NCBI GenBank assembly: GCA_963514005.1
Contig: OY740802.1
Span: 2,604,001-2,668,000, forward strand
DNA length: 64,000 nucleotides
Direction: 5' to 3'
Origin: Raja brachyura
Taxonomy: Eukaryota
The notes below the pieces were generated by a model. The model saw only the letters and a program-made list of their open reading frames with translations. It was not told where the DNA came from and made no database searches. The position numbers were made by a program, and so were the translations under genes. Positions 11,183-54,907 of this stretch are shown piece by piece; positions within the stretch are counted from its first letter, which is position 1, and each line of letters starts with the position of its first letter.

Positions 11183-12631
11183 GTTTCACCATGTAGAAAT
11201 TACAGCAGTGTTTATACATGGTCCCCCCATGTCAGGGCACCATAATGTTTGGGACACATGGCTTCACAGATGTGTGCAATTGCTCAGGTGTGTTTAAATG
11301 CCCATTAATGCAGGTATAAGAGATCTCAGAACCTAGTCTTTCCTCCAGTCTTTCCATCACCGTTTGAAACTTGTATTGCTGTTTATCAACATGAGGACCA
11401 AAGAATAAAACTGTTAGAGACATCAGCCAAACTCTAGGCTTACCAAATTTACTGTTTGGAACATCATTAAGAAGAAAGAGAGCACTGGTGAACTTACTTA
11501 TCGCAAAGGGACTGGCAGGCCAAGGAAGACTTCCACAGCTGATGACAGAAGACTTCTCTCTATAATAAAGAAAAATCCCAAGCACCTGTCCGACAGATCA
11601 GAAACACTCTTCAGGAGTCGAGTGTGGATTTGTCAATGACCACTGTCTGCAGAAGACTTCATGAACAGAAATACAGAGGCTACACTGCAAGATGCAAACC
11701 ACTGGTTAGCCGCAAAAATAGGATGGCCGGGTTACAGTTTGCCAAGAAGTACTTAAAAGAGCAACCACAGTTCTGGAAAAAGGTCTTGTGGACAGATGAG
11801 ATGAAGATTAACTTATATCAGAGTGATGGCAGGAGCAAAGTATGGAGGAGAGAAGGAACTGCCCAAGATCCAAAGCATACCACCTCATCTGTGAAACACA
11901 GTGGTGGGGGTGTTATGGCCTGGGCATGTATGGCTGCTGAAGGTACTGGCTCACTTATCTTCATTGATGATACAACTGCTGATGGTAGTAGCATAATGCA
12001 TTCTGATGTGTATAGACACATCCTATCTGCTCAAGTTCAAACAAATGCCTCCAAACCCATTGGTCGGCGGTTCATTTTACAGCCAGACAATGAACCCAAA
12101 CATACTGCTAAAGCAACAAAGGAGTTTTTCAAAGCTAAAAAATGGTCAATTCTTGAGTGGCCAAGTCAATCACCCGATCTGAACCCAGTTGAGCATGCCT
12201 TTTATATGCTGAAGAGAAAACTGAAGGGGACTAGTCCCAAAACAAGCATTTGCTAAAGATGGCTGCAATTCAGGCCTGGCAGAGCATCACCAGAGAAGAC
12301 ACCCAGTAACTGGTGATGTCCATGAATCGCAGACTTCAAGCAGTCATTGCATGCAAAGGATATGCAACAAAATACTAAACATGACTACTTTCATTTACAT
12401 GACATTGCTGTGTCCCAACATTATGGTGCCCTGAAATGGGGGGATTATGTATAAACACTGCTGTAATTTCTACATGGTGAAACCCAAATGTATAAAAATG
12501 GCCTTTGTTAAAATCTGACAATGTGCTCTTTAACCACATGTGATTTTGTCTATTACAAATCTCAAATTGTGGAGTACAGAGGCAAATAAATGAATGATGG
12601 GTCTTTGTCCCAAACATTATGGAGGGCACTG
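11183..12631 (+). mobile_element. Tc1-like DNA transposon relic (DD34E, IR/DR type), left end truncated
   Basis: ORF 11624-12256 has WTDE, QPDNEPKH and SPDLNPVE with 34 residues between D and E. Right TIR ends ...ATTATGGAGGGCACTG followed by TA. Frameshifts and a deletion after the ATG at 11391. Confidence 0.95.
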
Positions 12632-13244
12632 TATATTTCCTACAGGGGGTTACACAAAAAGCTGGAGAAACTCAGCGGGTGCAGCAGCATCTAAGGAGCG
12701 AAGGAGATAGGCGACGTTTCGGGTCGAGACCCTTCTTCAGACCCTATATTTCCTACATGTGTGTCCTAAATTTTATTGGTGAAGTGGTACCTACAGATTA
12801 TTGTAATTAATTTATTATTGTCACATGTACTGAGAGACCTTGAAAAGCTTTATGGAGGGCACTGTATAGATGTTGATGTAGAGAGATAAAGAACAATGAA
12901 TGCATTTGTATCCAGTAACTCACACTAACAACTTAGTAGGTTTGCCTACTTTATGTTGCAAACGCATAGCAGCACCAACGTGTTATGGAGGCGGAGAGAA
13001 CTGCAGATGCTGGAAGATTGAGCAGAACACAAAGTGCTGGAGGAACTCAGCGAGTCAGGCAGCATCTGTGGTGGGAATGGGCAGGCGACTTTGTGAGACG
13101 GGAGGGTTACACAAAAAGCTGGAGAAACTCAGCGGGTGCAGCAGCATCTAAGGAGCGAAGGAGATAGGCGACGTTTCGGGTCGAGACCCTTCTTCAGACT
13201 GCTATCTGACAGATCACCAGTCTCAAGGAAGATCCAGACCCATA

Positions 13245-23172: not shown

Positions 23173-24975
23173 TAACCATATAACCATATAACAATTACAG
23201 CACGGAAACAGGCCATCTCGGCCCTTCAAGTCCGTGCCGAACAACTTTTTTCCCTTAGTCCCACCTGCCTGCACTCATACCATAACCCTCCATACCCTTC
23301 TCATCCATATGCCTATCCAATTTATTTTTAAATGATACCAACGAACCTGCCGCCACCACTTCCACTGGAAGCTCATTCCACACCGCTACCACTCTCTGAG
23401 TAAAGAAGTTCCCCCTCATGTTACCCCTAAACCTCTGTCCCTTAATTCTAAAGTCATGTCCTCTTGTTTGAATCTTCCCTATTCTCAAAGGGAAAAGCTT
23501 GTCCACATTAACTCTGTCTATCCCTCTCATCATTTTAAAGACTCTATCAAGTCCCCCCTTAACCTTCTGCGCTCCAGAGAATAAAGACCTAACTTATTCA
23601 ACCTATCTCTGTAACTTAGCTGTTGAAACCCAGGCAACATTCTAGTAAATCTCCTCTGTACCCTCTCTATTTTGTTGACATCCTTCCTATAATTGGGCGA
23701 CCAAAATTGTACACCAGATTTGGTCTCACCAACGCCTTGTACAATTTTAACATTACATCCCAGCTTCTATACTCAATGCTCTGATTTATAAAGGCTAGCA
23801 TACCAAAAGCTTTCTTTACCACCCTATCTATATGAGATTCCACCTTCAAGGAACTATGCACGGTTATTCCCAGATCCCTCTGTTCAACTGTATTCTTCAA
23901 TTCTCTATCGTTTACCATGTACGTCCTATTTTGATTTGTCCTGCCAAGGTGTAGCACCTCACATTTATCAGCATTAAACTCCATCTGCCATCTTTCAGCC
24001 CATTTTTCCAACTGGCCTAAATCACTCTGTAGACTTTGGAATTCCTCTTCATTATCCACAACACCCCCTATCTTGGTATCATCTGCATACTTACTAATCC
24101 AATTTACCACCCCTTCATCCAGATCATTGATGTACATGACAAACAACAAAGGACCCAACACAGATCCCTGAGGCACCCCACTAGTCACCTGCCTCCAACC
24201 CGACAAACAGCCATCCACCATTACCCTCTGGCTTCTCCCATTCAGCCACTGTTGAATCCATCTTGCTATTCCTGCATTTATACCCAACAGTTGAACCTTC
24301 TTAACCAAACTTCCATGAGGAACCTTGTCAAAGGCCTTACTGAAGTCCATATAGACAATATCCACTGCTTTACCCTCGTCAATTTCCCTAGTAACCTCTT
24401 CAAAAAATTCAAGAAGATTAGTCAAACATGACCTTCCAGGCATAAATCCATGTTGACTGTTCCTAATTAGACCCTCTTTATCCAGATACTTATATATATT
24501 ATCTCTAAGTATCTTTTCCATTAATTTGCCCACCACTGAAGTCAAACTAACCGGTCTATAATTGCTAGGTTTACTTTTAGAACCCTTTTTAAACAATGGA
24601 ACAACATGCGCAATACGCCAATCCTCGGGGACTATTCCCGTTTCTAATGACATTTGAAATATTTCTGTCATAGCCCCGGCTATTTCTACACTAACTTCCC
24701 TCAATGTCCTAGGGAATATCCTATCAGGACCTGGAGACTTATCCACTTTTATATTTTTCAAAAGTGCCAGTACTTCTTTTACTTTGAAACTCATAGTATC
24801 CATAGCTACTCTACTAGTTTCCCTTACCTCACATAATTCAATATCCTTCTCCTTGGTGAATACCGAAGAAAAGAAATTGTTCAATATCTCCCCCATCTCT
24901 TTTGGCTCTGCAGATAGCTGTCCACTCGGTCTCCCCAATGGACCAATTTTATCCCTTGTTATCCTTTTGCTATTA
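23173..24975 (-). mobile_element. CR1-clade LINE, 5'-truncated about 1.8 kb, near-intact RT
   Basis: 423-aa ORF with SPGPD, NYRPVSLTS, QHGF, DFSKAFD, GVPQGSVLGP and YADD; frameshifted C-terminus (RGNFFTQRVV); 3' tail (TATATGGT)n. Confidence 0.97.
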
Positions 24976-25409
24976 ATATATTCTACTTTTGTGTTCCATG
25001 CTTGTTCTGAGTTCCTACAGCTTCTTCACCGACTCAGTGCCTGTTATCCCCTGATTACAGAACTTCCCCGATACCTATTTTGGTGCACATTAATCTCTCG
25101 GTATCTTACTGAGTATTGGAGCACTCTTTTATAACCAGTGCCCTGCACAAAGTTTGTGAAAGAACATATTGTTCAGATGGAAAGATTTATCTATGTTTAC
25201 ATAAATAATTCCTTAAAAGAGCTAAAAATAGAAATGAACAGAGAAAGCAGGTCAAAACTGATCAGTAAAGTTGCACAAGCTAATGGAACAATAATCTTTG
25301 GAAACAAACAATTTAGTTGTTTTCAAATACATTTATGAATGATCTTGTAATTAAGGAAAATTACATTTGCAAGTTTTTCCCGGGTTTGCACGGAAATGTT
25401 CAAATGTAG

Positions 25410-25635: not shown

Positions 25636-25864
25636 GTAACACTACTAACTTACCTAAGGTAGATAAACATGCTGGAGAAACTCAGCGGGTGAGGCAGCAT
25701 CTATGGTGCATTTCGGGTCAAGACCCTTCTTCAGTCACCTATTCCTTCGCTCCATAGATGCTGCCTCACCCACTGAGTTTCACCAGCATTTTTATCTACC
25801 TTCGATTTTTCCAGCATCTGCAGTTCCTTCTTAAACATTTCGACTGCTATCTTATCTTGTCAAA

Positions 25865-26420
25865 AGGTAAGAGTGTTTCATTATCATGTGTCCCGGCAAC
25901 AGAACAATTAAATACTTCCTGCAGCTTTACAGACCCTTGTATTGTGATGCAATAACACACAAATAAATATACAATAATCAGTAAAACAATAAATTAATAA
26001 TCAATAATACTCGATAATCAGACCATAATGAGGCAAAACTGAAAACCAAACCAAAGTCCATAAGTAGGTCATAGTTGCTGAGATAGGGTTTGTGTTGTTT
26101 AGTGTTCAAGAGCCAGATGGTTGCTGGGAAGAAGCTGTTCTTCAACCTGGAGATCATGGTTTTCAGGCTCCTGTACCTTCTTCCTGATGGTAGCAAGGAG
26201 ACGAGAGTGAGGCCAGGGTGGTGTGGATCTTTGATGATATTAGAGTCCTTTTGCTGGCAGTGCCTCCTATTTGGATGGTGGGGAGGTCAGTACCAGTGAT
26301 AAACCGGGCAGTGTCCACCACTTTCTACAGACTTACATTTTTGGGAGTTCACATTGCCCTAATGTTGAGAGCAAGATTGTTGTTCTGGCATCATTCATTC
26401 GGATCATCAATCTCTCTCCA
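25865..26420 (-). mobile_element. Rex1/Babar-clade LINE 3' fragment; another at about 56900-57640 (+), split by a SINE
   Basis: LPSGRRYRSLKTMISRLKNSFFPATIWLLN C-terminal signature. Confidence 0.75.
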
Positions 26421-29330: not shown

Positions 29331-29794
29331 AGCACAATGCATGCACTGTGAAACAAACATGATGTGAAAGTGGATATACCCTCCAGTGATATCACCTCAA
29401 GTCAAATCTTTCCAACATTATTCATGGGTGTGGAGTACCTTCCTTACAGATTTCATATCTTCAGTTTCCCAAATCCGCTTGTAAATGACTAATGCCTGGA
29501 ATGGGAGGAATTCTTCCTGATGAAAGGTTGTGCAGACAGGCTTGTATCCAGTAATGATCAGAAGAGAGAGAGGACCTGGTGCAACATACAAGATCCTGAG
29601 ATGTCCTGACAGCATAAAATGATGCTGTTATACGTTTCACATAGGCCATTTGAGATTAGGTGAATTTTTTGAGTTGAGAGCCTGTGAACCATTTTTAAAA
29701 ATTGAATGGCAGTGGAAGCAGGACCTTTAAATATTTTACTTTTTATTTAAATATTTTATTTACACGGATGTAAATCATCCAATAAAGTTGGCTA

Positions 29795-29933
29795 GATAGA
29801 CTAGATAGCAGTCAGAAGAAGGCTCTCGACCCAAAACGTCACCCATCCAGAGATGCTGCCTGTCCCGCTGAGTTACTCCAGTATTTTGTTTCTATCTTTG
29901 GTTTAACCAGCATCTGCAGTTCCTTCCTATTTT
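29795..29933 (+). mobile_element. Penelope pseudo-LTR derivative (donor of the sequence captured at 42 kb)
   Basis: 13-bp TSD ATAAAGTTGGCTA at 29782-29794 and 29934-29946. Confidence 0.88.
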
Positions 29934-30114
29934 ATAAAGTTGGCTACTTCATCTTGCCCATTTGTTTAAACTTTGTATATTACAATAGGTCTTTATTTTA
30001 AAGTCGATCTCGCCCCCCTATCAGGATTTTCATTTCTGAGATTAACCGGATGATTGGAGGCACATGCATGGATAATATAAAATTCAGGATATTCAATTTA
30101 TATTGGTTTTGCTG

Positions 30115-30465
30115 CCATAAAGTGATACTGTGTGGAAACAGGCCCTTCGGCCCAACTCGCCCACATCGGCCAACAATGTCCCTTCTATCCTTGTCCCAGT
30201 TGCCTGTGCTTGGTCCATAACCCTCCAAACCTGTCCTATCCATGTACCTGTTCAACTGTTTCTTAAACAATGGGACAATGCCAGCCTGAACTACCTGCTC
30301 TGGCAGTTTGTTCCATACACCCACCACCCTCTGTGTGAAAAAGTTACCCCTCGGATTCCTATTAAATCCTTTCCCCTTCACTTTGAACCCATGTCCTCTG
30401 GTTCTCGATTCCCCTATTCTGGGCAAGAGACTCTGTGCATCTACTCGATCTATTCCTCTCATGAT
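30115..30465 (-). mobile_element. CR1/HER1-like 3' fragment; related pieces at about 1950-2335, 4310-4445, 4870-5025, 62190-62705
   Basis: RGIDRVDAQSLLPRIGESRTRGH...FFTQRVVGVWN; 3' end GGGCCGAAGGGCCTGTTTCC shared with the SINEs. Confidence 0.9.
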
Positions 30466-31319
30466 TCTGAGATCAATAAGGCTAAATTTACTCTCCCATT
30501 GTTGTCTTAATCTGCATATTACCTCTTGTCTTGTGTGTGAGTGTCTGTTATATTTAAGGAATCTACCAAACAGGGTTATCATGTCACCATTGTCATTAAG
30601 TCAAATTTGCTTTAAATATTTAACATGATAAAATGAGCACATAAGAAAAACATTTCAACAAGGGTCCCATCCCAAAACGTCATACATCCATGTCCTCCAG
30701 AGATGCTGCCTGACCCGCTGAGTGACTCCAGCACTTTGGGTCATTTTTTGCAAACCAGCATCTACAGTTCCATGTGCCTACATTTTAAGAAGTTTATTAT
30801 CTTTAAAAATAGACAATTCATCCGTGCCAGATAAAACATAGCCCAAGCTCTTAAAAGAAGCAAGGGAGATAGTTGAAGACAATTTTCCAATTCTCCCTGG
30901 CTGCAGTACCGGTGCGAGAAGCGAGCTAACACTGTACCGTTATCTAAAAACAAAGGTTGGGGAAAACCAAGTAATTATTGACTAGTTGATTTAACTTTGG
31001 CGCTGTTCAAAATATCGGAATCCATTTGAAGAGCCGGTATAAACCTTTTAGAAAGGTACTGATTAATCAGGAACAGACAGATGGATGGATTTGTTCAGTG
31101 AACGTGGTGCCGGACTGACTTGATTGAATGCATTGAGGGGGCAACAAGGAGAGTCACTGAGAGATGTGCGTTTATTGAAGACTGCACAGATTTTTAGCAA
31201 GCTTCTACATAGCAGGTGGAGGAACAAATTTGATGTACTACAATCCTTAAAGGAATCAGGACAAGTCACTAAGTTGGTTAAAAAGGCTTATGGGATATTA
31301 TATTTTATTACTTAAGGCA

Positions 31320-31844
31320 TCTATATATATTACTAAAACTCTCATCTTGTTTGTTTGTTTGTATGCGTGCGTGCATGTGAGTGGATTCCGGAAACTCCAT
31401 CAAAATGGTACACGATAGAGCTCCAAATTTTGGCCCACCTTACTCACCATTGTCCTGCGATGTAAATTAAACACGTTTTGTTCAGATTGATGGTATATTT
31501 TACAAGTTATTCACATTTTAAACTGTACAAAAAAAACACTTTCCAACATGCCCGTTTGACATCAGCCGCCCTTAACGTCACAATGACATTAAAATTTTTT
31601 TTTTAAACGCCATGTTTTCATTTTTCGTGTATACTTCCCTGGCCTCACAACGGGGACCCAACGGCTCAATGTATAATTTTGCTTCTACTTTACAAACACC
31701 TCCACGGGTCCTCTATTCACTTTATTAACTTTAACTTAATTTCAGCCGTCAACGGCAGAACTTTGAACGTGGCAGCTACGCATGCGCAATTTGGTGGAAT
31801 ATTGCGTTGGCAAAGCGGGCCGAAAAGGTCAGCACTTGACCTAG
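31320..31844 (+). mobile_element. Non-autonomous Helitron-like element
   Basis: Starts TC (TCTATATATATTACTAAAAC), ends CTAG, inserted between A and T without TSD. Removing it restores CR1-like AAGGCATAGAATATAAA. 5' TGTT microsatellite. Confidence 0.75.
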
Positions 31845-32223
31845 TAGAATATAAATACAGGGAGTAGGAACAAAAACTGCAGATGCTGGTTTATACCAAG
31901 GATAGACACAAAGTGCTAGAGTAACTCAGCGGTTCAGGCAACAAATCTGGAGAAAAACGATGGGAGAGGTTTCGGGTCAGGACAGATGCTGCCTGACCCG
32001 CTGAGTTACTCCAGCACTTTGTGTCTACAATTACTGGGGGGTTATTGCCAGTATTGCAAACAACACTAGTTTGGTCACAGATTGAATGCAACATACAGTA
32101 ATGTTCATCTTATTTCATGAAAGGTGCCTGGCAGCATAGAAGATACATAGGACATATGTGATGTGTAGGATGGCACTGCAGATGCTGGTTTAAACTGAAG
32201 ATAGACACAAAATGCTGGAGTAA

Positions 32224-32760
32224 AAGGGCTGTCCCACTGAGGCGACCTAATTGTTGAGTTTAGAAGAGTTTGCCCTCGACTCATACTCGCAGCATGGTCG
32301 ACACGAGGTCCTATGAGGTCTTTGTAACTCTCCTTCATGCTCGAGAGTAGTCCCCGCGTACTCGAGGCCTCAGCTACGTCGCGGTGTATTTTTCAACATG
32401 CTGAAAAATGCCCGCAAGTAAAAAAAGGTCTATATGTTTTTTACTCGAAGGTTTAGTCGAAGTAGATTGTAGTAGGTCGGCATGTTACTCGCAGGTAATC
32501 GAGGGTAGTCGAAGGTAATCGAAAGTAGTCAAAGGTAGTTGTAGATAGTCTTCAACATAGTTGAAGGGAGGTCGAAGGAGAACGAAGGAGGTCGTCTTCA
32601 CTCTCTACTATTCAGTGTCCAATTTTGCCGAAGCTAGTCTTCAACATAGTCTAAGGAGGTCGAATGAGATATTCTACATAGTTGAAGGAGGTCTTCAACA
32701 TGACACTTTTTCAAACTCTTCTAAACTCGCCAATTAGGTCCCCGCAGTGGGACAGCCCCT
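32224..32760. mobile_element. Harbinger-type MITE, inverted copy of 20108-20610, nested in a Penelope-type repeat
   Basis: Splits GCTGGAG-TAA-CTCAGCGGG at TAA (flanks TAA/TTA); interior is the reverse complement of the 20.1 kb copy. Confidence 0.9.
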
Positions 32761-34121
32761 TTACTCAGCGGGACAGGTAGCATCTCTGGAGAGAAGGAAT
32801 GGGTGACGGTTCGGGTCTGAAGAAGGGTCTCGACCCGAAACGTCACCCATTCCTTCTCTCCAGGCATGCTGCTTGTCCCGTTGAATTACTGCAGCGTTTT
32901 GTGTCTGTCTGCAAATGTGATGCTGGGTTTGGAAAATTGTCCCTGAGGAAAGACAAGATATGATGGGGTATTTACTTATAGGGGACACTTAAATCAAGGT
33001 TTATGCAATTTTGAAAGCCCTTACCAGACAAGATATAGTTTCCTTTAGCTGAGGAGTCAAAAACAAGGGATGCAATTTAAAATAACTTGGGGAAGGATTA
33101 AAGAAACCAGAGAGAACATTGTTAGCTCAATGGATGATATGGCTTTGGAATTCACTGCCCTAAAATGTTTGTCACATATAAGCAGTACTTGGACGTGCAG
33201 TTATAAAGCCATGACAATGGATCAAGTGTACGAGAACATTTTTGCAAATTGGCACGGACACAGAGGGTTGAATGGCCCACTGTGTCTATATTTTCAATGC
33301 TAATTCTATGATTCTGCATGCAATATGGACATTGGAAAACTATGAATCTGTTCAGAATCTCAACATTATTCAGGGTACAAATGTGTCACGGTGAGCATAT
33401 TCCACCAATGGCCAAAGCTAGACACATAAAGCTGGAGTAACTCAGCGGGACAGGCAGCACCTCTGGAGAGAAGGAATGGGTGACGTTTCGGCTCAAGACC
33501 CTTCTTCATCAATGGCCATGTCCACAGCAGCCTTGTCACCTGTCCAGAAGGGGACTGATGGAACAATGCGTAAGCATTGCCCTACCTGAACCCCCTCCCC
33601 CCCCACCAAAAGTATTACCGCCCACATCATCTCCTCTGTGACCCCCTCCTGATCGTTTCCCCCGACCTGGTACAGCTCATTACATCTGGCATGCATGGCA
33701 CACATTGGATTTGCACTCCGTTGAAGAAAGTTTATTCTTCCGTGTTGCCGTGGCACTCACGAGTTATCGTGTGAATTTTAATGAGGTTGGACCATTAAAA
33801 TATTTTGACATCGGAAAATATTTCAGCCGGCTGTCCCATTGCCCTCTTGGTCGTTAAAGTCTGATAGCCACCTGGTGAAGGGTGGCATACTGGAAAGAAA
33901 GCTTTAATTGCTTGTGACGTACTACAAATTGTGCACAATCATCCTTCTTTCTTTCAAGCCTGTTCTGAACAAATATACAATGTTGATGTGAAGGAAACTA
34001 GTTAATGCTGTGGCTAAAACTGCATCCTGATTAACCCTTAGATAGATTTCTATTAAGAAAATGTACTGAATTATTTCAATGGTAATATTAAAACCACTAC
34101 AAGTGGTTTTGGAGAGAATAA

Positions 34122-34313
34122 AGGGCCTGTCCCACTTGCGCGTCATTTGCGTGTCACGCAGATGGCGCACGAATATTTTGTACATCCCAAAATCCTGCGG
34201 CTCCACGCGCGACCACGCGTTGCAGCCTACGTCTCCACGCACGATGCCAGCGCGTCATGCGTCGTGACGTGTAAATGATCTCGCGCAAATGACGCCCAAG
34301 TGGGACAGGCCCT
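34122..34313. mobile_element. Short palindromic Harbinger-type MITE
   Basis: AGGGCCTGTCCCACTTGCGCGTCATTTGCG ... CGCAAATGACGCCCAAGTGGGACAGGCCCT; TSD imperfect (TAA/TTG). Confidence 0.85.
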
Positions 34314-35189
34314 TTGCCTGACTTTATATCTTAGGTAGACAAAAATGCTGGAGAAACCCAGCGGGTGAGGCGGCGTCTATGGAGCAAAGGAATAGGTGAC
34401 GTTTCGGGTCGAGACCCTTCAAGGGTGCCTCACCGCTGAGTTTCTCCAGCATTTTTTGTCTACCTTTGATTTTTCCAGCATCTGTAGTTCTTTCTTAAAC
34501 ATGACTTTATATCTTAGTCAGTAGATATAAAATGATATTCTGAAAGTGAAGGGTTAAACTCATTGTGATCAATGAGAGTTTAGTTTCATGCATCAGGATT
34601 AGATGCTCAGAGTTTTCCTCAGCAACATGCACTATGGTGTGTACGGTGTCAACCTGACCTTTGACCGCACCATTGTGATTACTTTATCATCTTACAGACA
34701 GGTGTCTGGTTTGTACACATGCTGTGGGATTGGCACAGGTTACAAAACAACTTCTGTGGAAATGCTGCACATTAAGCTCCCAAGATGAAACAGTCCCCGG
34801 AGAGAAAAGAAGCATTTAGCGTTTGAAAGTATATATATAAAAGGAAAAAAAAAATCCTGCCTGCTACCTCTTACTGGGCAGAAATTGATTTTGTTATCAT
34901 CTCTCAACATCTAACACAGTGCGAGTCAGTTGAAAAGGAGATTTAGCCATGCTTCAAGTTAATATTTTATAGGTCCATATTCATATTTGAAAAAGTCTCA
35001 TGCACTTTCAATTCCTACTGTTTTCTCAAAGCGCACTACTTAAGCAAGCTTATATTTATCAAAGAAACTGCTTTGTAACATTGTCCTGTAATGACTATCT
35101 CTTCCCAATAGAGGTGCTCTAGTACCACTCATAGACGGAGGTAATGATAGCGTGTCACATATGGTCAGTGTATCACCTGCAGTGGTTTG

Positions 35190-35335
35190 CCACCCATTAT
35201 TCACACTTAGCTGCTGGACCTATCCGATTTTCATCCAGAAGCCAGGTTAGTTCCCACATCTACACTGATGACACACAGCTCTATTTCCAAGCCTCCTGTC
35301 TTGTCCACTGCTCTGCTTCCAATTGTCAGATTTCT
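35190..35335 (+). mobile_element. L2-like RT relic; another at about 39720-40080
   Basis: HIYTDDTQLYF, a decayed YADDTQLY motif. Confidence 0.6.
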
Positions 35336-35854
35336 TGGCCAATATCATTCAAACAAATTCATGTCCAAAAGGAAGACTGCCCGTTTGTACCATTCTACCA
35401 TCAATGGATTCCATCTTTATCTTAGCTTACCCGCGTTGTTACCCTGCCCCTGATTATCCCAATGCTCCCCTGACGTACCATTTGATTCTATCCTGCATAA
35501 ACTCTGGTCTTGTGTTTAATTCACATTATCCAGGTTTGATTAGTAAGGGTGTCAATGGTTATGGGGAGAAGACAGGAGAATTGGGTTCTTCTTCTTATCG
35601 AGTCCACGCACAAGACCAGAAATTGTTCAGCCAGAGCTGAACACACCTCTCGGCATCCGCACACAATGGTGTCTGTCTTGTCACTTCTTGTGCGTGGTGG
35701 TGGAAAGATTGGTGGAAACAGGGCCGTGCGTGAATGCTCTTTCCTTGACCCCGGAGAATGGGGTTGAGAGGGAAAGATGGATCAACCATGAGTGAATGGC
35801 GGGGTAGACTTGATGGGCCAAATGGTCTAACTCTGCTCCTATGACATGAACTTA

Positions 35855-37362
35855 CAGTGCCCTCTATAATGTTTGGGACAAAGACCCATCATTTATTTGC
35901 CTCTGTACTCCACAATTTGAGATTTGTAATACAAAAATCACGTGTGGTTAAAGTGCACATTGTCAGATTTTATTAAAGGGTATTTTTATACATTTTGGTT
36001 TCACCATGTACAAATTACAGCTGTGTTTATACATAATCCCCCCATTTCAGGGCACCATAATGTTTGGGACACATGGCTTCACAGGTGTTTGTAATTGCTC
36101 AGGTGTGTTTAAATGCCTCCTTAATGCAGGTATAAGAGAGCTCTCAGCACCTAGTCTTTCTTCCAGTCTTTCCATCACCTTTGGAAACTTTTATTGCTGT
36201 TTATCAACATGAGGACCAAAGTTGTGCCAATGAAAGTCAAAGAAGCCATTATGGGACTGAGAAACAAGAATAAAACTGTTAGAGACACCAGCCTTACCAA
36301 AGTCTTAGGCTGACCAAAATCAACTGTTTGGAACATCATGAAGAAGAAAGAGAGCACTGGTGAGCTTACTAATCGCAAAGGGACTGGCAGGCCAAGGAAG
36401 ACCTCCACAGTTGACGGCAGAAGATTTTCTCTATAATATAGAAAAATCCCCAAACACCTGTCTGACACATCAGAAACATTCTTCACTAGTCAGGTGAGGA
36501 TTTGTCAATGACCACTGTCCGCAGAAGACTTCATGAACAGAAATACAGAGGCTACACTGCAGGATGCAAACCACTGGTTAGCTGCAAAAATAGATGGCCG
36601 GGTTACAGTTTGCCAAGAAGTACATAAAAGAGCAACCACAGTTCTGGAAAAAGGTCTTGTGGACAGATGAGACGAAGATTAACTTATATCAGAGTGATGG
36701 CAAGAGCAAAGTATGGAGGAGAGAGGGAATTGCTCAAGATCCAAAGCATACCGCCTCATTTGTGAAACACGGTGGTGGGGGTGTTATGGCCTGGGCATGT
36801 ATGGCTGCTGAAGGTACTGGCTCACTTATCTTCATTGATGATACAGCTGCTGATGGTATTAGCATAATGAATTCTGAAGTGTATAGACACATCCTATCTG
36901 CTCAAGTTCAAACAATGAAGAAGGGTCTCGACCCGAAACGTCGCCTATCTCCTTCACTCCTTAGATGCTGCTGCACCCGCTGAGTTTCTCCAGCTTTTTG
37001 TGTAACCCTCATAATTCATTGGTCGGCGGTTCATTCTACAGCAAGACAATGATTCCAAACATACTGCTAAAGCAACAAGGAGTTTCTCAAAGCTAACAAA
37101 TGGTCAATTCTTGAGTGACCAAGTCAATCACCCGATCTGAACCCAGTTGAGCATGCCTTTTATATGCTGAAGAGAAAACTGAAGGGGACTAGCCCCCAAA
37201 ACAAGCATTTGCTAAAGATGGCTGCAATACAGGCCTGGCAGAGCATCACCAGAGAAGACACCCAGTAACTGGTGATGTCCATGAATCGCAGACTTCAAGC
37301 AATCATTGCATGCCAAGGATATGCAACAAAATACTAAACATGACTACTTTCATTTACATGAC
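35855..37362 (+). mobile_element. Second copy of the same Tc1 family, right end displaced
   Basis: TA then CAGTGCCCTCTATAATGTTTGGGAC left TIR with inner direct repeat CAGGGCACCATAATGTTTGGGAC. Disrupted transposase from ATG 36209, interrupted by a young Penelope-type insert at about 36916-37008. Confidence 0.95.
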
Positions 37363-37742
37363 CTTACAGTGGGAAGCAATATGGATCGATTATTTACAGC
37401 TTATATGAATGACTTAGATGAAGAGGATATAACCTGACTAGATTTATGTACAATATAATGCTCAGTGGAAAGGTAGCTGTTAGCAGGACACAAGAAAATC
37501 TACAAACTGATATAAATTGGTTCCACAAGGCAGTGGCCTGTCGGAATATATTATGAGAAAATGTAAGGTTTTGCATTTTAGGGCAAAGAGAAAATTAGAA
37601 TATATTTTGAACACTGAGAAGCTAGTAAATGTTGGTATTCAGAAGGTCCTTGGTGTGCTGTTCAAGAAATACAGTTCTAACAAACAATTAGGAAGGCAAA
37701 TGTTTTGTCAGCTTGTATTGCAAAGGGATTTGGGTGGAAAAG

Positions 37743-37876
37743 TACAGTGCCCACCATAAACCATGTGTCCCAACATTATGGTGCCCTGAAATGGGGGGAC
37801 TATGTATAAATGCTGCTGTAATTTCTACATGGTGAAACCAAAATGTATAAAAATGACCTTTATTAAAATCTGACAA
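37743..37876 (+). mobile_element. Rearranged Tc1 TIR fragment
   Basis: TACAGTGCCCACCATAA (left-end tip) fused to right-TIR interior TGTGTCCCAACATTATGGTGCCCTGAAAT... Confidence 0.85.
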
Positions 37877-37879
37877 CTA

Positions 37880-38390
37880 TGAGAACTAATGAAGCATTGC
37901 CAACCCCTCACTCAGACTGGATCATCTGCTGCCTCTTGTGGAGGAAGTATCCCCAGGCTCCCCAAATGGCTTCAGATTTCACCATTGTTGTGATCTTTGC
38001 AGAAGACGCTCTTCGGTCTGCCCGAGCATTGTTGACCACCCAGTGGAGCGAGATGTCCGTCGGGGAATGTTGCCAACTGGCACGCTGCTGACTGCTGGAG
38101 TACATGCTGAGGGGCACACTGAAGCTCGGTGCAGCCAACACCAAGGCTCTATGGGGGAGAACCACAGCCTAGAGTCCTTCCGCTACTGGACATGGGGGGC
38201 AGGGTGTGGTGGACACGCCCCTCAAAATAAGGGAAGGGAGTGGCTAGGGCGGGGGGATAAATTTGTGATTTGGGGAAACTGTATTGTATGTATGTATAGC
38301 CTCCGAGAATGTCGGATGGAGTTTTGTAAGAATCATGCATTGTATATATATATTTCTTGAATAAAGACTATTTTGAAATTTAAAAAAAGA
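37880..38390 (+). mobile_element. L1/Tx1-like LINE 3' end
   Basis: Decayed coding sequence (DALRSAR...ECCQLAR) then AATAAA and an A-rich tail. Confidence 0.55.
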
Positions 38391-41300
38391 TTCAGGAAAA
38401 GTGTCAGAACATGATCCCTGGCATTATAAATGGTCTACACTGATCTGAGCAAAACCTATGACTTTACCAATCAGAAGTCTCTGTGAAAAAATACAGTTTG
38501 GTTGCCCAGGCCACTATTATAAAACTCATCTGAATGCCTGTTTTGTAGTGTAGTCTGAACTTTTTGCCATCTGATTAGGTGTGAAACATGTGGTGTACTT
38601 GCATCCTTCTCTGTACTTCTATCAGTATGCAAACATTTATCCAACAATGTCTGCCACGGGGCACTGGTATCCAATATTGGACTGGCGGTAACCACTCATC
38701 CTGTGTCAGAACTAAAGTAGCATCAGCTTCTGTAATCAAACACTAATAGGCTGATAATCACACTGCTGTTGTGCAATGAACAAAAGACACAAGCAGCGGG
38801 CAACTGCTTCTCTGAAGCTTATAACAGCCCCGGGCTAACTCTGAACATTGACAAAACTACCACTCATCACCATGTTGCTCTGAGCATTGTCCAGCATAGA
38901 AGATCTATGTTGACAGTGTGGAACATGTTGCCTACCTTGGCCAGAGGGCAACTGGAGATGTAGATTCAGTCCAGTATTTATTCTGCTTATGTGTGTCTGA
39001 AGAAGGGCCTCGACCCAAAACGTCGCCTATCTCCTTCGCTCCTTAGATGCTGCTGCACCCGCTGAGTTTCTCCAGCTTTTTGTGTAACCCTCGATTCTCC
39101 AGCATCTGCAGTTCCTTCTTTAACACTTTATTCTGCTTATCTTGCCTTTGACTGGCTGGCCTGCTGGGTTACTTTCAGAGTGTGTACAAATATCTTACTA
39201 AGCAATGCTAATCTCAACTCGCCTACACATCTGGGTAATTACTGAAAATTTCTGGGAAAACCTGGAATGCCAACACCTCCATTGGAAGAATCCCAATATC
39301 AACTGAAAGATGGAAGCTAACATCTTCAGTGCCTGATTCTACCTCAAATCACCATCAACTAAGGTACAGTCAGGCTCTGGGAGTGTATGAAGCATTCCTA
39401 TCAAAATAACTGCTTTATAACCAATGTCAAAGACAAATTTATTCATCACATACACCCGAAGGTGCAGTGAAATGAATTTGCCAGCAGTGATACACTTAAA
39501 AAGAACACGCAATACACAATAAAATTTAACACAAACATCATGTACCAACAGAGAAGGGAAACTGCAAGGCCAAAATGAAAAGCTTCAAAGAGACAAACAT
39601 CAAAAGAGTCTGCATCACACATCGGCAGACAGTGGCCCAGAACAAAGCTATTGAGCTGATTCTATCTTCCATAAACTCTTACAAAAGGGGAAAGGAAAAT
39701 GGTCTCACCTCGGTCATAGATGACCATGAATTTATCTATGGTTTCTCGTAGCAACCAAGGTTGAATCACATCCTCGCACACCATTTGTAACGCTCTCAAA
39801 TTTGTCTCTGATTTCAGCAGATTTCCCCATCATCTAAATACCCGTTAAACGTTCTTGACCCAATAGATCATCAGCGTCTTCTACAAGGACCACTGGCTTA
39901 ATGGTTCATTGTGTGTCAAATATGATAATGCTACCTTGAGATTCTATATCACAGCCTGTCCATCTCCCTCAATCCCTTTACCTTCATTATCCCCGAACCT
40001 TGAAGCTGTTTTAACCGCACCGTATCCTTTTGAGATCTTTCATTAGTTGCCATCACTCAAGGACAGCCGTCACTAAGTTCCATTCTTCTCTTGTAGCCTT
40101 TTGAGTTTTATGATTATTAAGAAGATGCTCTGTGGTTGTAGAATTGAATGTGTTTCTAGCCCCAGTAACATAGAGGGTTTGAGACATGGAGAGAAAAGGG
40201 TTGAGGTGAGGGTGGGGGTTGGAGGTTTGATGGAGCACTGCCTCATATACATTCTAATAGCAGTGTATGTTTTCTGGGACTACACTGTTGGGTGCTACCA
40301 AATGGGCTGAGGACAAGGAACCGTTAAGTTTGGAACTGAACCACCTTTAAAAATATCTATCCAACATTACCACCACTTCCCTCCCCCAACCCTCACCGCA
40401 GTCTTCCTTCCTGTTGTTTTTGCAGGGCCTTTTGTAAGTTCCCACCAATTTAGCCTTCATGAATTAGTTAATGCTTGTAAAATATTAACACATATCTGCT
40501 TTCTAAAATGTGTGGCTGTAAAATTATAAGTTTGGTGTACAGAATTTCTGGGCTTTTGACAATTTTCTTAATTGACAATTTTTTCACAATTGTTTTGTCA
40601 TGGATCTCAATAAATGTTAACTTGTCCACAATGTGAATTCCAGATTGTTTCAAAGACCTTTTTGGACAAAAAATAAATAAAAAATTACCACATATGTACA
40701 AAAGTGGACACATCATTCAACTCCTCTCAATGCAGAGTTTACATATTGGAAATGTTGATGCTTCGACCCAAATGGTTGAAAGCTCCTTCCAGTTACTGTC
40801 AGGTAATCATCCCTGAATAAATTCATAATTTTGAAAGAGGTTGAGGACTAAATGTAAAAATTGAATTATGTTATTCACAAAGAACAATCTACTGGGTTAA
40901 CATTACATCTGTTTCGTTGTTTGTCATTTTGTTTACAACTTTGCACATTAGAAATGTGTTAATTTGTTTAAAAAACGTCAGACCAAGAATTTTATAAATA
41001 ATTTTTCACAGTTAGATTGGTGCTTTGACAAAATATGATGCCAAAAGATGACAAGATTTGTTTATTTTTAAAGATATTACTAGTTATTTTGAATAAAACA
41101 TGCTGACAGGTCTGGTGTCCATTATAAAATTAGGAATAAAAGTTTGTGTGTGGAAAGTGAACACAATTTGTAAGGTTTTTACCCATATTAACCCATATTT
41201 CAAGAGTTAGGCTTCTTCTTCCGTATGGCGTGCACAGATTAAAGTTGTAGGACAACCTGTTCTATTTGATCTTATTGGTTTGTGCACACCAGGTTGATTG

Positions 41301-41889
41301 CATTCGTCGAAACAGGGCGGACCACGTGAAGGTTGTAATCTCCCACCCCAAGAGTTAGGCGTCATAGCAAGACAAAATGATTTCATCTTGGTCACACTGA
41401 CCTTTGCTGAGAATCTATTCCTGTCTGTAACTGCATCCACTTCATCTCTCCTCTCTCTCCACCACCTCCCCCCCTTCTCTCCCCCCCCCCCCCCCCAAAC
41501 ATTCTCTTTCCATATTGAGAACTGCTGGTATGGTCTGCTTAAAGCAGCTATGAAAAAAGTCAAAATTAATACATTTTAATATTTTAATCTCCTGCAAATT
41601 AGCTTTAATTTGCAATGCTCTAAGTGGTTTTCATGGTTGCATCAGATATGGTAACACAGTCGGCAATTGACTGTAAATTTAGCCATGTGTGCAAAATTCC
41701 TGGGGAGGGTATACACTGGGAATTATTTTAATGGTAAATACTGGCTGATGATTAATGAGCCGTTTGACTACAAATCTGCTCATTTGTAACCTTCACAAAA
41801 TCTTCAACATGTCTTCTACATACACCCAAAGTGACCAAAGCCAAAATTAATTTGCTTATGCACTTTAAACTCAGCAGGCATAAATCTTT

Positions 41890-42182
41890 AGGAAAGAACT
41901 GCAGATGTTGGTTTAAACTGAAGATGGACACAAATTGCTGGAGTAACTCAGCGATGGGGGGTGAGATTGACTTTAAATTAAAGACCTCTTGTAATATACA
42001 AAGCTTAAACAAATGGGCAGGATGAAGTAGCCAACTTTATTTGTAGGAAGGAACTGCAGATGTTGGTTAAACCAAAGATGTTTTGGGTCTTCGAAGGGTC
42101 TCGACCCGAAACGTCACCCATTCCTTCTCCCCAGAGATGCTGCCTGTCCCGCTGAGTTACTCCAGCATTTTGTGTCTATCTT
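41890..42182. mobile_element. Composite Penelope-type insertion with captured intronic sequence
   Basis: 14-bp TSD AGGCATAAATCTTT at 41876-41889 and 42183-42196; interior 41956-42079 is the reverse complement of about 29894-30018. Confidence 0.9.
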
Positions 42183-42936
42183 AGGCATAAATCTTTGGTT
42201 CTTATTTGTGCAAAAAATAATAACAAACAATTAAAGTTGCATGTTTATTCCAAGTTCAGTTTATTCTATCCAATAAATAACACTTTGTAATTTAGAATCA
42301 TATTTTTGGATTCTGATCAGCTACATTTTTCGGATAGCAAGGCAAAAACACCACCCTAAAGATCAGGGCAATCCTATCAACAACTAGAGAGCATTCCTGA
42401 GCTACTATCTACCTCATTGGAGATCCTCGGACTACATTTAATCGGACTTTACTGGACTTTATCTGGCACGAAAGGTTTTTCCCTTTATCCTGAATCACTT
42501 TATCTGTACCCAGTAGATGGCTTGATTGTCATCATGAATAGTCTTTCCGTTGACTGGTAAGCACACAATAAAAGCTTTTCACTGTACCCCGGTACACGTG
42601 ACAAAAAACTAAACCAAACTAGATGTCATTTAACTGTAATGCAAAAAGTGTGTAACTCAATTTACCAGTAAATTTGAAGTCAAATCTCTTCCAGTCTTTT
42701 AAGTGGAAGATTAGTTCACCGACACTGCTCTATGAGACGAGATCGAATGTTTGCTGTAATTTGCAGACAGATTTGTTTCTCATATTCTTGTTACTGGGTT
42801 TTATTGTAATTCGAAATGTGGAGTGAGTGTTTGACTGATTATAATAATAATAATAATTCATCTTTGTCAATAATAAACAGTCTAAGATGTTTATGAAACT
42901 ATTGCAGTCAGTGAATACTGTAATGTGCTTCCACAG

Positions 42937-43092
42937 ACTGGAGATGGAGTCACAGCTAAGGAGAGCATCTCTCTGAAACGTGTGGCGGTTGTGGAGGATT
43001 TTTTCGACATTATTTATTCTATGCACGTGGAAACGGGGACAGAGACCGGGAGGACGGCGAAACACGCCGGCCAGAAACGGACTTATAAAGCG
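42937..43092 (+). CDS. NOL4L: NOL4L coding exon 2
   Basis: Acceptor ccacag|, 156 nt, TGDGVTAKESISLKRVAVVEDFFDIIYSMHVETGTETGRTAKHAGQKRTYKA, donor GCG|GTGAGC. Phase 0-0, in frame with exon 1. Not in the ORF track. Confidence 0.95.
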
Positions 43093-45263
43093 GTGAGCTA
43101 AAAATGCCTTCACTAATTCCTTAACTTCAATAAATCAGGGTTTCTTCGTTGAAGACATGAGAAACCACGGGTACTGGAATCTTGAGCAAGACACAACGTG
43201 CTGGATGGACTCAGCGGGTCAGGCAGCATCTGTGGAGGGAATGGACAGGCGACGATTCGAGTAGGGCTCTTGTTTTGAGACCCCGGAGAAAGGTCTGTCC
43301 AAGTCTGAGCTGAGTTCCTCCTGCTCTTTGTGTTTTGTTTACAATGTTGTTGTTATAATTTATTCCAACTTTATTTCAATCATAGAAATGGCTGCTCTGC
43401 TTGAGTATTATAACCACAATATAACTGGCATTTAGTTTAGTCTAGTTTAGGGATACAGTGTGGAAACAGGCCCTTCGGGCCATCAAGGTCTATACTGGTT
43501 ATATCACTTGTTCTATCCCACCCACGAGGGGCAATTTACAGAGGCCAAATAACCTACAAACTGCATGTGGGGGGGGGGGGGGGGGGGGGGAACCGGATCA
43601 CCCGGAGGAAAACCATGCAGTCACAAAGAGAATGTGCAAACTCCACACTGACAGCACCTGAGGTCAGGATTGAATTCGGGTCTCTGGGGCTGTGAGGCAG
43701 CAGGTCTGGCAGCTGTGCCACTGTCAAATGAGTCTGCAATGCCGAATATTTGAGAGGCCTTGGATAAAGGGTGAAGCTTAGATTCTCTAAAATGTGCTGT
43801 AAAGTAGCAAAGAGTGATTGGTGAAATTAGCGCTAAGGATCTGCTTGATGAATACAAATGTTGGACAGCATTTCACAAAGCTCACTGTTGTGTGGAGCAG
43901 AGTGCATTTATAAAACTATCTCTATTTCATGGTCATCTAAGTATTCACTTTGCAAATTTAAAATAAACTCAAGATAAACATACATGCTGGTGTAACTCAG
44001 CGGGACAGGCAGCATCTCTGGAGAAAAGGAATGGGTGACATTTCGGGTCGAGACCCTTCATCAGACTCACTTGCCTGTTTAGTTCAGCTTTGCATTTGCC
44101 ACTTTCCACTGTTTTTACATGGAGATACTGTTCAGCTTTATGCATAATGCTTCTAAATTGACTCTCCCCTCATTTGTGGGATCAAGTGTTTACCTGTATT
44201 ACATTTACGGGCGATATGTGAAATACTGTACAGGTTTAAAATTGAACAGTCGTCACATAGGGACAGCATTTTAATGACCAAAGTCTATATAATTAATTAA
44301 AAGAGATGTGTAAAGTACAGGTTTAAAATTGAACAAACCTTGCAGAGGGACAGCTTGTTTTACGTGCAGAGTCTATGCAGTTAATTAAACTGTATTTAAT
44401 GCAATGTATTAATCTGATGACCTGCTGAGAACTGTTTTGCTGCGATTCAGACTAGCTGCTTTTGGAAGAATAGTATTTTCCAGGAATCAGAATGAAATAA
44501 GCAACCAAAAGCCAATGATTCGATGCTCAGTCCTGTTGTTTATCTATAAATTCAGTCAATCACTCTGGTGCAAGTGTGATATTCATTAATAACTGCAGCC
44601 TCACAGTTTCAAGAACCTGGGTTTGAATTCGATCTTGTGCTGTCTGTGTGGAGTTTGCACGTTCTCCCTTTGGTTGGGCACTCTGGTTTCATCCAAAAAA
44701 CCCACAGTCTTGTTGATTGGGCTAAAGTAAACGACACTGTATTTAAGTGACAATTGAAAGGGAATTGCAGACACAAGGAACTGCAGATGCTGGAATAAAG
44801 GAATTTGATGGGCAGGTAAATTGCAAGGAAATAAGAAAAGTGGAATGGGATTGCTCTGCTGATGGAGTTCAGCATGAACTCAATAAGCAAGAGGGCCTCT
44901 TGTGTATCGCAATAGCTTTACAGAACTAAAATATCAAAGATTTGAAGTAATTATACTAAATTTTAGATATGTGCAGCATATGAGGTGAAACAGAGCTGGT
45001 GGTTCGCCAACCTCCATAAGCTAAATATAACAGGACCAACACTTTTCCCATTTTTTTAGTTGTTCAGATTAATGAATTCTTCATAATTGGTCAATTAAGT
45101 AAATAGCTGGAGTGGGGGAACCACTGTGGGGGAGCGGGAAGAACAATGGACACTCGGTATGGGGGGGGGGGGGGACAAAGGAGGAGCCGGCGTACTTTGT
45201 AACTTTGTCAGCACCTTGGGTATGCAAGCAAAGAATTTCACTGTGCCTTGCCACATGTGACAA

Positions 45264-45790
45264 TAGGGTTGCCAACTTTCTCACTCCCAAGTATGGGACA
45301 AAAGGTCAAAATACGGGACAAATTCCAGACGGCAATTCGTTGACCGACTCGGCCGTGGCTGGGTGAATGATGAGTTGGCCCGGGTGCTGGACTGCACACA
45401 AAGCCCAGCCGGCGGGCCAGCTGAGGAGTTTTGGCCCGCGCGACATCGCACGCAAAGTGCGGCGCCCCGTCCAACTCATGAACTGATGATCCGCCGTGAG
45501 AAGGAGGGGTGGTGGTGGTGTCAGCGGTTAGCGAAGGTCTGAAGGTCGGACAGCTGGTCGGGCAGCCGACCGACCAACGGGGCCACAGGCGAGGCGCTGC
45601 TGTTGCACTCCATGGGCTGCACTACTTCGGGACGGGTGAGGCGGGGCCGGACGCGGCGCTCTGACCCGACGATCCCCTCGACCCGAGTAGTAGCGGTCAA
45701 ATATGGGACGAGGGCGGTCCCATACGGGACAAACTAATTTAGCCCAATATACGGGATGTCCCGCCTAATACGGGACAGTTAGCAACCCTA
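45264..45790. mobile_element. hAT-type non-autonomous DNA transposon
   Basis: TIR TAGGGTTGCCAACT / AGTTAGCAACCCTA, perfect 8-bp TSD TGTGACAA (45256-45263 and 45791-45798), subterminal ATACGGGAC repeats. Confidence 0.92.
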
Positions 45791-51799: not shown

Positions 51800-52520
51800 C
51801 TGAATATATCAAATACATCAACAACAGATAATCCTATGACATTTTCGCCACCTCCAAAGGGATCCCACCACTGGCCACATCTTCCCATCTCCTCCCCTTT
51901 CAGCTTTCCGCAGAGACCGCTCCCTCCGTGACTCCCTGGTCAATTTGTCCCTTCCCAACCAAACTACTCCCTCCCCTGGTACTTTCCCTTGCAACCACAG
52001 GAAATACTACACTTGTCGCTTTACCTCCCCCCTTGACAACATCCAAAGACCCAAGCAGTTTTTCCAGGTGAGGCAGAGGTTCACCTGCACCTCCTCCAAC
52101 CTGATCTATTGCATCCACTGCTCTAGGTGTCAGCTGCTCTACATCAAGCGTAGGCCTGGTGTTCACTTTGCCCAACATCTCCGCTTGGTTCGCACTAACC
52201 AACCTGATCTCCCGGTGGCCCAGCACTTCAGAGTGGGTCCCACTGCAAATTGGAGGAGCAGCACCTCATATTTTGCTTAGGCAGTTTACACCCCAGCGGT
52301 ATGAACAATTTCAGGTAGTCCTTGCTTTCTCCCTACTTCCCCTCCCCTTCCCAGCTCTCCCAAAGCCTACTGCCTCTGCCTCTTCCTTTCTTCTTCCCGC
52401 CCCCCCCCCCCCCACCTACACATCAGTCTGAAGACGGGTCTCAACCCGAAACGTCACCTATTCCTTCGCTCCATAGATGCTGCCTCACGCGCTGAGGTTC
52501 TCCAGCATTTTTGTCTACCT
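51800..52520 (+). mobile_element. Penelope-like element 3' fragment: GIY-YIG endonuclease relic plus pseudo-LTR with hammerhead motif
   Basis: PGTFPCNHRKYYTC...QRFTCTSSNLIYCIHCSRCQLLYI..KRR...FAQHLR, then a pyrimidine-rich UTR and CTGAAGACGGGTCTCAACCCGAAACGTC, which continues as the abundant short repeat. Confidence 0.88.
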
Positions 52521-54604: not shown

Positions 54605-54907
54605 TTTAAGAAAGAACTGCAGATGCAGTTTGTGTGTTATTGCATTAAAGGGTCTGTAACGCTGCAGGAAGTAAGTATTTAATTGTTCCGTTGCCGGGAC
54701 ACATGATAATGAAACACTCTTAACACTTGACAAGGTAAGTTAGTAGTCGAAATGTTTAAGAAGGAACTGCAGATGCTGGAAAAATCAAAGGTTGACAAAA
54801 ATGCTGGAGAAACTCAGTGGGTGAGACAGCGTCTATGGAGCAAAGGAATTCCTTCACTCTGTGGATGCTGCCTCACCCGCTGAGTTTCTCCAGCATTTTT
54901 GTCTACC
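54605..54907. mobile_element. Composite Penelope-type insertion with captured intronic sequence
   Basis: 13-bp TSD TTCCCTTGTGTTG at 54592-54604 and 54908-54920; interior 54629-54755 is the reverse complement of about 25835-25963. Confidence 0.9.

Follow-up and report, generated by a model that had tools for sequence, protein, structure and literature searches.

How does host sequence that adjoins one retroelement come to lie, inverted, inside a separate insertion of the same family farther along the same gene? This question is raised by a 64,000-nt stretch of the skate Raja brachyura (G000:C22:2,604,001-2,668,000; contig OY740802.1, hereafter C22), referred to below as the window, which includes the first intron of the gene NOL4L. 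An insertion of a Penelope-like element (PLE) in this intron contains a reverse-complemented copy of the end of a second PLE insertion located 12 kb upstream, together with the target-site duplication (TSD) and adjoining host sequence of the latter. We report that the captured piece was templated locally, that comparable captures recur over kilobase distances, and that certain sub-lineages of the element do not extend beyond megabase neighborhoods of C22. The strands from which the captured pieces derive suggest that host RNA was probably the template.

Results

Anatomy of the focal insertion

NOL4L was recognized by its first coding exon, which is 97% identical to that of Leucoraja and 95% identical to that of Amblyraja. 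Its coding exons extend on the plus strand from 7046 to window-relative position 175069, and both the donor and the recipient reside within intron 1 (7319-42936). The original prediction described 41956-42079 as a reverse complement of the donor's tail, TSD and flank. Alignment bears this out and lengthens the match: 41953-42079 corresponds to 29894-30022 with 91% identity and 12 differing columns, while a separate alignment of the same pair gave 125 nt at 91.2%. The captured piece comprises the last 36 nt of the donor tail, the right-hand TSD copy and a further 76 nt of flank, and it is contained, as claimed, in a separate insertion with its own 14-bp TSD (Table 1). Read in element orientation (minus strand), the recipient at 41890-42182 consists of an inverted tail-less arm, a 13-nt spacer, the captured piece and its own tail arm. 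The donor, a short copy with a vestigial inverted stub at 29795-29810, is on the plus strand and so is sense to NOL4L, also as predicted.

Searches of the whole 2.7-Gb assembly, in which very common words were skipped, returned two matches to the flank query 29940-30022, namely the donor and the copy (2 of 2 candidates scored). The flank that had appeared unique is therefore held by these two loci. Further counts come from a survey sample of 1.984 Mb of C22 (1,984,001-3,968,000), most of them from its first 1.864 Mb. The sequence variant that donor and copy had been said to share is indeed present in both and in only these two of the 701 tails in 1.864 Mb, but it has 13 matches on 12 contigs genome-wide. 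It is dispersed, recurs independently and is not diagnostic alone, and was rejected as a lineage marker. The 13-nt spacer also has the donor's CpG-decayed allele, itself a common one (78 vs 315 matches in 1.98 Mb). At the other end the unique flank stops at 30022, with 1 nt of microhomology at the joint with the recipient arm.

Neither arm of the recipient is derived from the donor, which ranks 103rd of 1755 copies by match to the tail arm and 288th of 1755 by match to the inverted tail-less arm. The downstream plus-strand copy at 30657, considered as the source of the tail arm via looping within one RNA, ranked 407th of 1755 and was rejected.

The composite structure predates the split from a second species, organism B, in which a 96-nt contig (run X2) joins the flank to the recipient's own arm; the donor flank of organism B differs at 12 of 170 letters. 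At four differing sites the copy carries the base that the organism B or C donors have, which places those changes at a later time, in the donor of the present lineage. A contig from run X5, taken as the donor of organism C, differs from the copy in this genome at 2 of 105 letters. The focal event is real and older than the splits from organisms B and C. That it is an assembly artefact, a concern voiced in the original prediction, or that the flank is part of a repeat family, has a negligible chance of being correct. No contig across the junction was found in runs X16 and X17, which are near-identical to this genome, but the junction contig of another species, the four sites with other species' donor bases, the 9% divergence of donor and copy, the intact TSD and the presence of only two matches all contradict it. 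No empty site at the recipient was seen in the sequencing runs compared. One 271-nt organism C contig (run X5) matches both strands at 42174-42573, which suggests a small inversion or inverted repeat there.

Table 1. Features of the window, with positions counted from its first letter.
Feature	Position	Strand	Remarks
NOL4L first coding exon	7046..7318	+	94.5% to skate NOL4L residues 1-91; sets host strand
Probable donor, case 8	8364..8502	-	Tail-less arm and 35 nt 5' flank; antisense to NOL4L; 1 kb from first coding exon
Head-to-head copy with marker V2	8694..8908	.
Probable recipient, case 8	13103..13234	-	4.7 kb from donor; no TSD found
Second donor, head-to-head copy	25652..25963	+	Plus arm, tail, TSD and 127 nt flank captured 29 kb downstream
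Focal donor, left TSD	29782..29794	+	13 bp, ATAAAGTTGGCTA; right TSD copy at 29934-29946
Focal donor, short Penelope-like copy	29795..29933	+	Pseudo-long terminal repeat (pLTR) and tail, model positions 1-127; sense to NOL4L
Focal donor, right TSD and 76 nt single-copy 3' flank	29934..30022	+	Captured host sequence
Focal recipient, left TSD	41876..41889	.	14 bp, AGGCATAAATCTTT
Focal recipient, own tail arm	41890..41953	-	Model 65-127
Captured piece (donor tail with TSD and flank)	41953..42079	-	From 29894-30022
Spacer, 13 nt, pieces of element head	42080..42092	-	Includes short palindromic junction
Focal recipient, inverted tail-less arm	42093..42182	+	Model 8 to about 100
Focal recipient, right TSD	42183..42196	.	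14 bp, AGGCATAAATCTTT
NOL4L second coding exon	42937..43098	+
Second recipient	54605..54904	-	15/16-bp TSD; anatomy as focal case; source 25734-25963

Two-ended insertions of the element family

Profiles built from the window copies identified 1755 element pieces in 1.864 Mb, or about 950 per Mb. Among 1378 outward-facing arm pairs tested, 105 had a TSD, and every one of these combined exactly one tailed and one tail-less end. TSDs were found in none of 553 like-ended pairs (tail-tail or tailless-tailless) and in none of 223 random pairs used as a null. The TSDs average 14.3 bp over the 105 pairs (range searched 10-20), and the arms end near model position 100 or 127-131. By this anatomy of inverted pLTR and tail the family is assigned to the endonuclease-positive (EN+) PLEs, for which insertions of this form are described in the available parts of PMC3846280 and PMC8557442. 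The portion of PMC11167929 available reports that an anole PLE has two reverse transcriptase (RT) start sites in vitro, with extension of both strands, and the pairing of one tailed with one tail-less end fits such a reaction.

An open reading frame (ORF) in a longer TSD-bounded copy matches the GIY-YIG domain PF01541 with 22.8 bits vs a cutoff of 22.6. The other four of the five ORF fragments tested against Pfam had no match, and the RT of the family was seen only as truncated ORF pieces. What remains of a longer Penelope-like copy at 51840-52531 (+), a decayed 3' portion that ends in the pLTR, likewise has no Pfam match. At the element head, core-like letters resembling those of a hammerhead motif, and a stem, are visible by eye; folds did not yield a ribozyme, and an Rfam scan of 28-45 kb gave 12 sub-threshold matches, none of them a hammerhead. 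A minimal hammerhead motif in the pLTR is described in the accessible part of PMC4209133.

Recurrent local capture

At least six of the 104 TSD-bounded head-to-head insertions in 1.864 Mb carry locally sourced filler, with sources that are adjacent or at 121 bp, 2.1 kb, 12 kb, 25 kb and 29 kb. The remaining fillers are mostly family extensions or nested repeats. Copies that share a junction form 41 distinct pairs, 31 of them more than 3 kb apart; 6 of these 31 are separated by 3-30 kb, vs 2.9% expected (P = 2.3e-4). All six have low-copy flanks, vs repeat flanks in 23 of the 25 pairs beyond 30 kb, and no dispersed daughters were found for the flanks searched genome-wide. Alongside the two-ended anatomy, an excess of shared junctions at the kilobase scale is thus a property of this sample.

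These data bear on ordinary 3' transduction with a chance landing in the same intron. PLEs can mobilize host sequence between pLTRs, according to the part of PMC3846280 available. Nevertheless, the focal flank has no other daughter in the genome, it is internal and followed by a tail arm that is not contiguous with the donor, and three such cases occur in one 170-kb gene against the background of the local excess. We consider 3' transduction very improbable and agree with the original prediction that the capture was a local event during Penelope-like integration.

Three of the long-range cases are in NOL4L, the focal one (case 1) among them. In case 2, the second donor and recipient of Table 1, the donor is upstream and sense to the gene; it is the only full-length match among the best 40 of 391 candidates, and the copy retains the unmutated form of the donor TSD. 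Case 3 (C22:2,712,143-2,712,430 from 2,686,929-2,687,112) is located in NOL4L intron 5, again with a sense, upstream donor. Both arms and the 5' flank are 99-100% like this donor (best 40 of 884 candidates); the arms show 0 and 1 differences and continue into the donor's 5' flank, and the arm sequence is also found in at least one other copy.

In PTPRT (case 4), C22:2,088,026-2,088,637 was copied from 2,081,965-2,082,464 in direct orientation, with a 15-bp TSD and about 290 nt of flank that has two matches genome-wide; the donor is sense and upstream. Case 5 lies in a gene identified by Pfam domains as an acetyl-CoA-synthetase gene (C22:2,381,310-2,381,559 from 2,370,757-2,370,833), where the donor is sense and downstream. 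Three further cases are without a TSD, and their donor and recipient roles are our reading of the flanks. These are PTPRT 2,004,889 from 2,036,527 (case 6; sense, donor downstream), CCM2L 3,263,316 from 3,290,577 (case 7; donor on the gene's strand), and the probable pair at 8364 and 13103 (case 8), whose 35-nt flank is held by only the 8364-8502 and 13103-13234 loci. The antisense copy from an upstream donor that the original prediction took as the pattern is not general, as the PTPRT copy is direct and the donor is downstream in two cases.

Two other places in the sample contain captures. Segments L111:9632-9993 and L112:114-194 contain a TSD-bounded insertion with an inverted 81-nt piece of the CCM2L coding exon next to it. 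Segments L132-L134 (C22 3.466-3.483 Mb) hold three captures that all fit a plus-strand template; no gene was mapped there, and an unannotated transcript is possible. A candidate exon at the 3.48-Mb donor had no credible match in the PDB.

Sub-lineages confined to megabase neighborhoods

Markers were complex sequences first seen in the sample and then searched across the whole assembly. All 7 matches of V2 are on C22 at 2.61-4.15 Mb, and all 27 matches of V3, in 11 loci, are at 3.11-6.10 Mb of the same contig. V4 and V5 each have two matches, 585 kb and 594 kb apart on C22, and a shared central filler has two that are 39 kb apart. V2 to V5 were found on this chromosome arm alone, over spans of 0.6-3 Mb. 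The in-sample copies of V2 and V3 were selected for while the out-of-sample loci were not, and the latter, which represent two independent lineages, are all (7/7) within 2.2 Mb of the sample. The parent motif is widespread, with 3133 matches, 10 of them in the sample; 91 among the first 100 matches listed are along C1. Megabase confinement holds for some lineages, a larger fact that the original prediction missed. A partial form of the V2 marker occurs at 1476-1662, and tandem arrays of a 40-41 nt element-head piece with V3 are present in L198 (C22 3.549 Mb) and at C22 5.326 Mb.

Two other candidates failed. Marker V1 does not establish the local donor as the source of the PTPRT tail arm, since 16 of its 19 matches lie elsewhere, and the palindromic junction motif is dispersed (121 matches) and recurs independently. 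The region C41 10.9-17.4 Mb is hot for the younger element family, containing 10 of the 19 matches of V1 and, among the first 100 matches listed for the junction motif, 25.

Some marker copies have their own TSD; in others none was detected. The latter, together with the density of homologous copies (1755 pieces in 1.864 Mb), would suit ordinary insertions to which the donor piece or the markers were added later by non-allelic gene conversion between neighbors. The frequency of gene conversion declines with distance. We regard this account as improbable, given that unique flank forms the end of the captured piece and meets a truncated arm there with no homology, that the same anatomy recurs with TSDs, and that organism B already has the junction.

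Strand of the captured arms

The inverted orientation of the focal copy does not decide between RNA and DNA as both ends of the insertion are primed. The deciding feature is whether the captured arm lies on the strand that the host gene transcribes. In all five TSD-bounded cases with a source more than 3 kb away, three in NOL4L, one in PTPRT and one in the acetyl-CoA-synthetase gene, the captured arm is on the host gene strand (p = 0.031). Adding the cases without a TSD gives 7 of 8 (p = 0.035), and the background in NOL4L is 79 sense copies of 155. Where a TSD-bounded 3'-flank capture came from a two-armed donor, the host-sense arm was taken in 3/3. Cases below 3 kb were left out before counting, as were pairs without a mapped gene (C22 near 2.31-2.33, 3.00/3.08, 3.47 and 3.55/3.59 Mb). 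Gene mapping of the sample was partial, the Pfam scan having taken 300 of 867 predicted exons.

Other repeats and rejected matches

An inverted match between 35960 and 37876 was rejected as a capture and is instead a transposon terminal repeat, Tc1-type by resemblance to the DDE ORF at 11546; 35852-36600, 37758-37876 and 11546-12256 are Tc1-type transposon remnants. Unbiased lists of two-copy self-matches (110 pairs in 1.064 Mb; 195 in 1.864 Mb) proved to be mostly low-copy dispersed repeats, a first junction list of 181 pairs was noisy because the elements insert into the same repeats, and a 204-nt filler thought to be unique is a dispersed repeat. A 533-bp, 85% two-copy match in the sample links 45264-45790 with C22 at about 3.264 Mb; both are CpG-rich spots, and one copy sits between element pieces. 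A 452-aa reverse transcriptase ORF (PF00078) is present at 23667-25025 (-) and is presumably CR1-like.

Discussion

RNA or DNA as the template

The original prediction proposed a template switch onto host intron RNA. We think it fairly probable, based on the strand tally, that the enzyme copied host pre-mRNA carrying the element, although the single focal locus fits a DNA template also. One part of the proposal does not stand, the switch at a homologous repeat. RT moves 3' to 5' on a sense RNA, so that an enzyme entering at the repeat would go on into the 5' flank, whereas the 3' flank was captured. To obtain the 3' flank from RNA, RT must enter at 30022 in unique sequence and exit in the repeat; entry at the repeat implies the opposite strand, and hence DNA.

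The sequence of events could be as follows. The GIY-YIG endonuclease would cut with a 14-bp stagger, and priming of the left end at the tail start site would be followed by 64 nt of extension on an element RNA. RT would then jump without homology onto NOL4L intron RNA, 76 nt past the donor TSD, copy back through flank, TSD and tail, and skip across the element hairpins. The product would be joined at the short palindrome to a second complementary DNA (cDNA) primed at the tail-less start site. That NOL4L pre-mRNA was still held near its gene is the likely reason for a source in the same intron, 12 kb upstream. More generally, promoter-less pLTR copies in host RNA could be recognized in trans and serve as templates near the transcription site, and the distance from source to daughter would range from kilobases to a few megabases. 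We put forward tentatively, as a possibility falling somewhat short of even, that the short copies spread mainly by such local retro-hopping, in which protein acting in trans finds pLTRs in nascent chromatin RNA and integrates the cDNA in the same gene or within a few megabases.

The strongest competing explanation is that nearby DNA was copied. The end of the inverted arm would fold back, and the new sense strand would invade the copy 12 kb away, run through tail, TSD and flank, and be joined to the tail-arm cDNA, as in repair of the integration break by synthesis-dependent strand annealing or a polymerase-theta-like route; megabase lineages would then reflect template choice by proximity. 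A strand that entered by homology and left where there is 1 nt of microhomology suits the focal sequence equally well, the short-range cases point to DNA, which probably acts at short range, one donor is antisense, and L1 templated insertions have been so interpreted in the available part of bioRxiv 2024.08.27.596794. However, copying of DNA predicts no host-strand bias, yet 5/5 and 7/8 were observed. In the published L1 cases, as given in that part of the preprint, the template is typically within 15 bp of the site, against 6-32 kb here. DNA templating also leaves unexplained the copies that start at RT start sites, have a fresh TSD and can be matched to a source nearby. On balance we judge it unlikely, though a serious contender.

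Several observations weigh against host RNA and local hopping as a general explanation. The strand tally is small and was hand-curated after the fact; case 5 draws on only 20 nt of flank, and the donor counted as sense in case 7 is 10 kb 5' of the CCM2L start codon, where transcription is putative. One of the eight long-range cases is antisense to NOL4L (8364 to 13103), which may point to antisense transcription or DNA templating. Three captures at short range appear to be DNA-templated. One has an antisense donor at 0.5 kb, one took the CCM2L exon from a distance of 121 bp, where the DNA-only route offers 9 nt of microhomology, and one is an adjacent fold-back. The focal junctions alone fit both routes, and none of the captured pieces crosses a splice junction. 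The 19 matches of V1 cluster on three chromosomes (C21, C22 and C41) and also include one small contig, with the C41 cluster overlapping a family hot region, and marker copies that lack a TSD may have arisen by later gene conversion. The 1.98-Mb survey is blind to distant donors, and one filler has a weak match on C33. When all copies were ranked by nearest relative, 86 of 1417 had theirs within 50 kb against an expected 75, which is no overall local excess. Near-identical copies give this ranking low power, and its high-margin local matches were mostly small DNA duplications.

The family offers many short copies with private markers and captured flanks, which makes source-daughter distance, strand and gene context measurable genome-wide. 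Such a measurement would test directly whether a retrotransposon reverse-transcribes chromatin-tethered host RNA. If local retro-hopping is correct, it would define a retroelement that hops locally and a way in which fragments of introns and exons are duplicated inside genes, such as the copied piece of the CCM2L exon. Subfamily age and location would be confounded in these genomes, and each sub-lineage would preserve, like a fossil, a trace of past transcription in the germline and of contacts between chromosome territories. The tail and flank would amount to a portable signal for site-proximal RNA-to-DNA writing.

Comparison with known systems

EN+ PLE insertions described in the accessible parts of PMC3846280, PMC8557442 and PMC11167929 share with the skate family an inverted 5'-truncated arm, a 30-nt tail at only one end, a palindromic junction, a TSD and host capture between pLTRs. 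Those parts differ in containing no near-insertion donors, link to host transcription or confined sub-lineages, and PLE template choice and the building of tandem or inverted insertions are called unresolved in the available text of PMC8557442. The parts seen of bioRxiv 2024.12.14.628481, PMC7229834 and PMC4209133 contain nothing on locality.

The L1 literature provides three relatives, each compared here through the portion of the source at hand. Nam et al. 2023 (PMC10191854) proposed an RT switch onto precursor mRNA near the insertion, and the focal donor is likewise in a host transcription unit and on the transcribed strand. Theirs was one somatic event in an adenoma clone, whereas the skate events are germline-fixed and recurrent (at least 6/104), with donors that are mostly other element copies. 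L1 templated insertions (bioRxiv 2024.08.27.596794) also hold genomic sequence, less than 250 bp of it, within an insertion primed from both ends. These are 22 cases, typically templated within 15 bp and read as DNA-templated, while the skate sources are at 0.1-32 kb and have a long-range host-strand bias; the focal template is 12 kb away, and one survey case is adjacent. In LINE-1 chimeras with cellular RNAs (PMC13174262), template switching similarly gives the same orientation and twin priming the opposite one, but the partners are diffusible RNAs and no claim of locality is made in the part available.

A literature search, with most subscription journals and supplements outside its coverage, found no local donors or local hopping of PLEs. 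It likewise gave no published account of frequent kilobase-to-megabase local hopping of a Penelope-like element; L1 precedents and PLE capture of host DNA between pLTRs are known. Local hopping itself is familiar from the DNA transposons P, Ac/Ds and Sleeping Beauty, new copies of which cluster near their source. Those are cut-and-paste DNA elements, whereas the skate family is a retroelement whose proposed locality would come from its RNA template.

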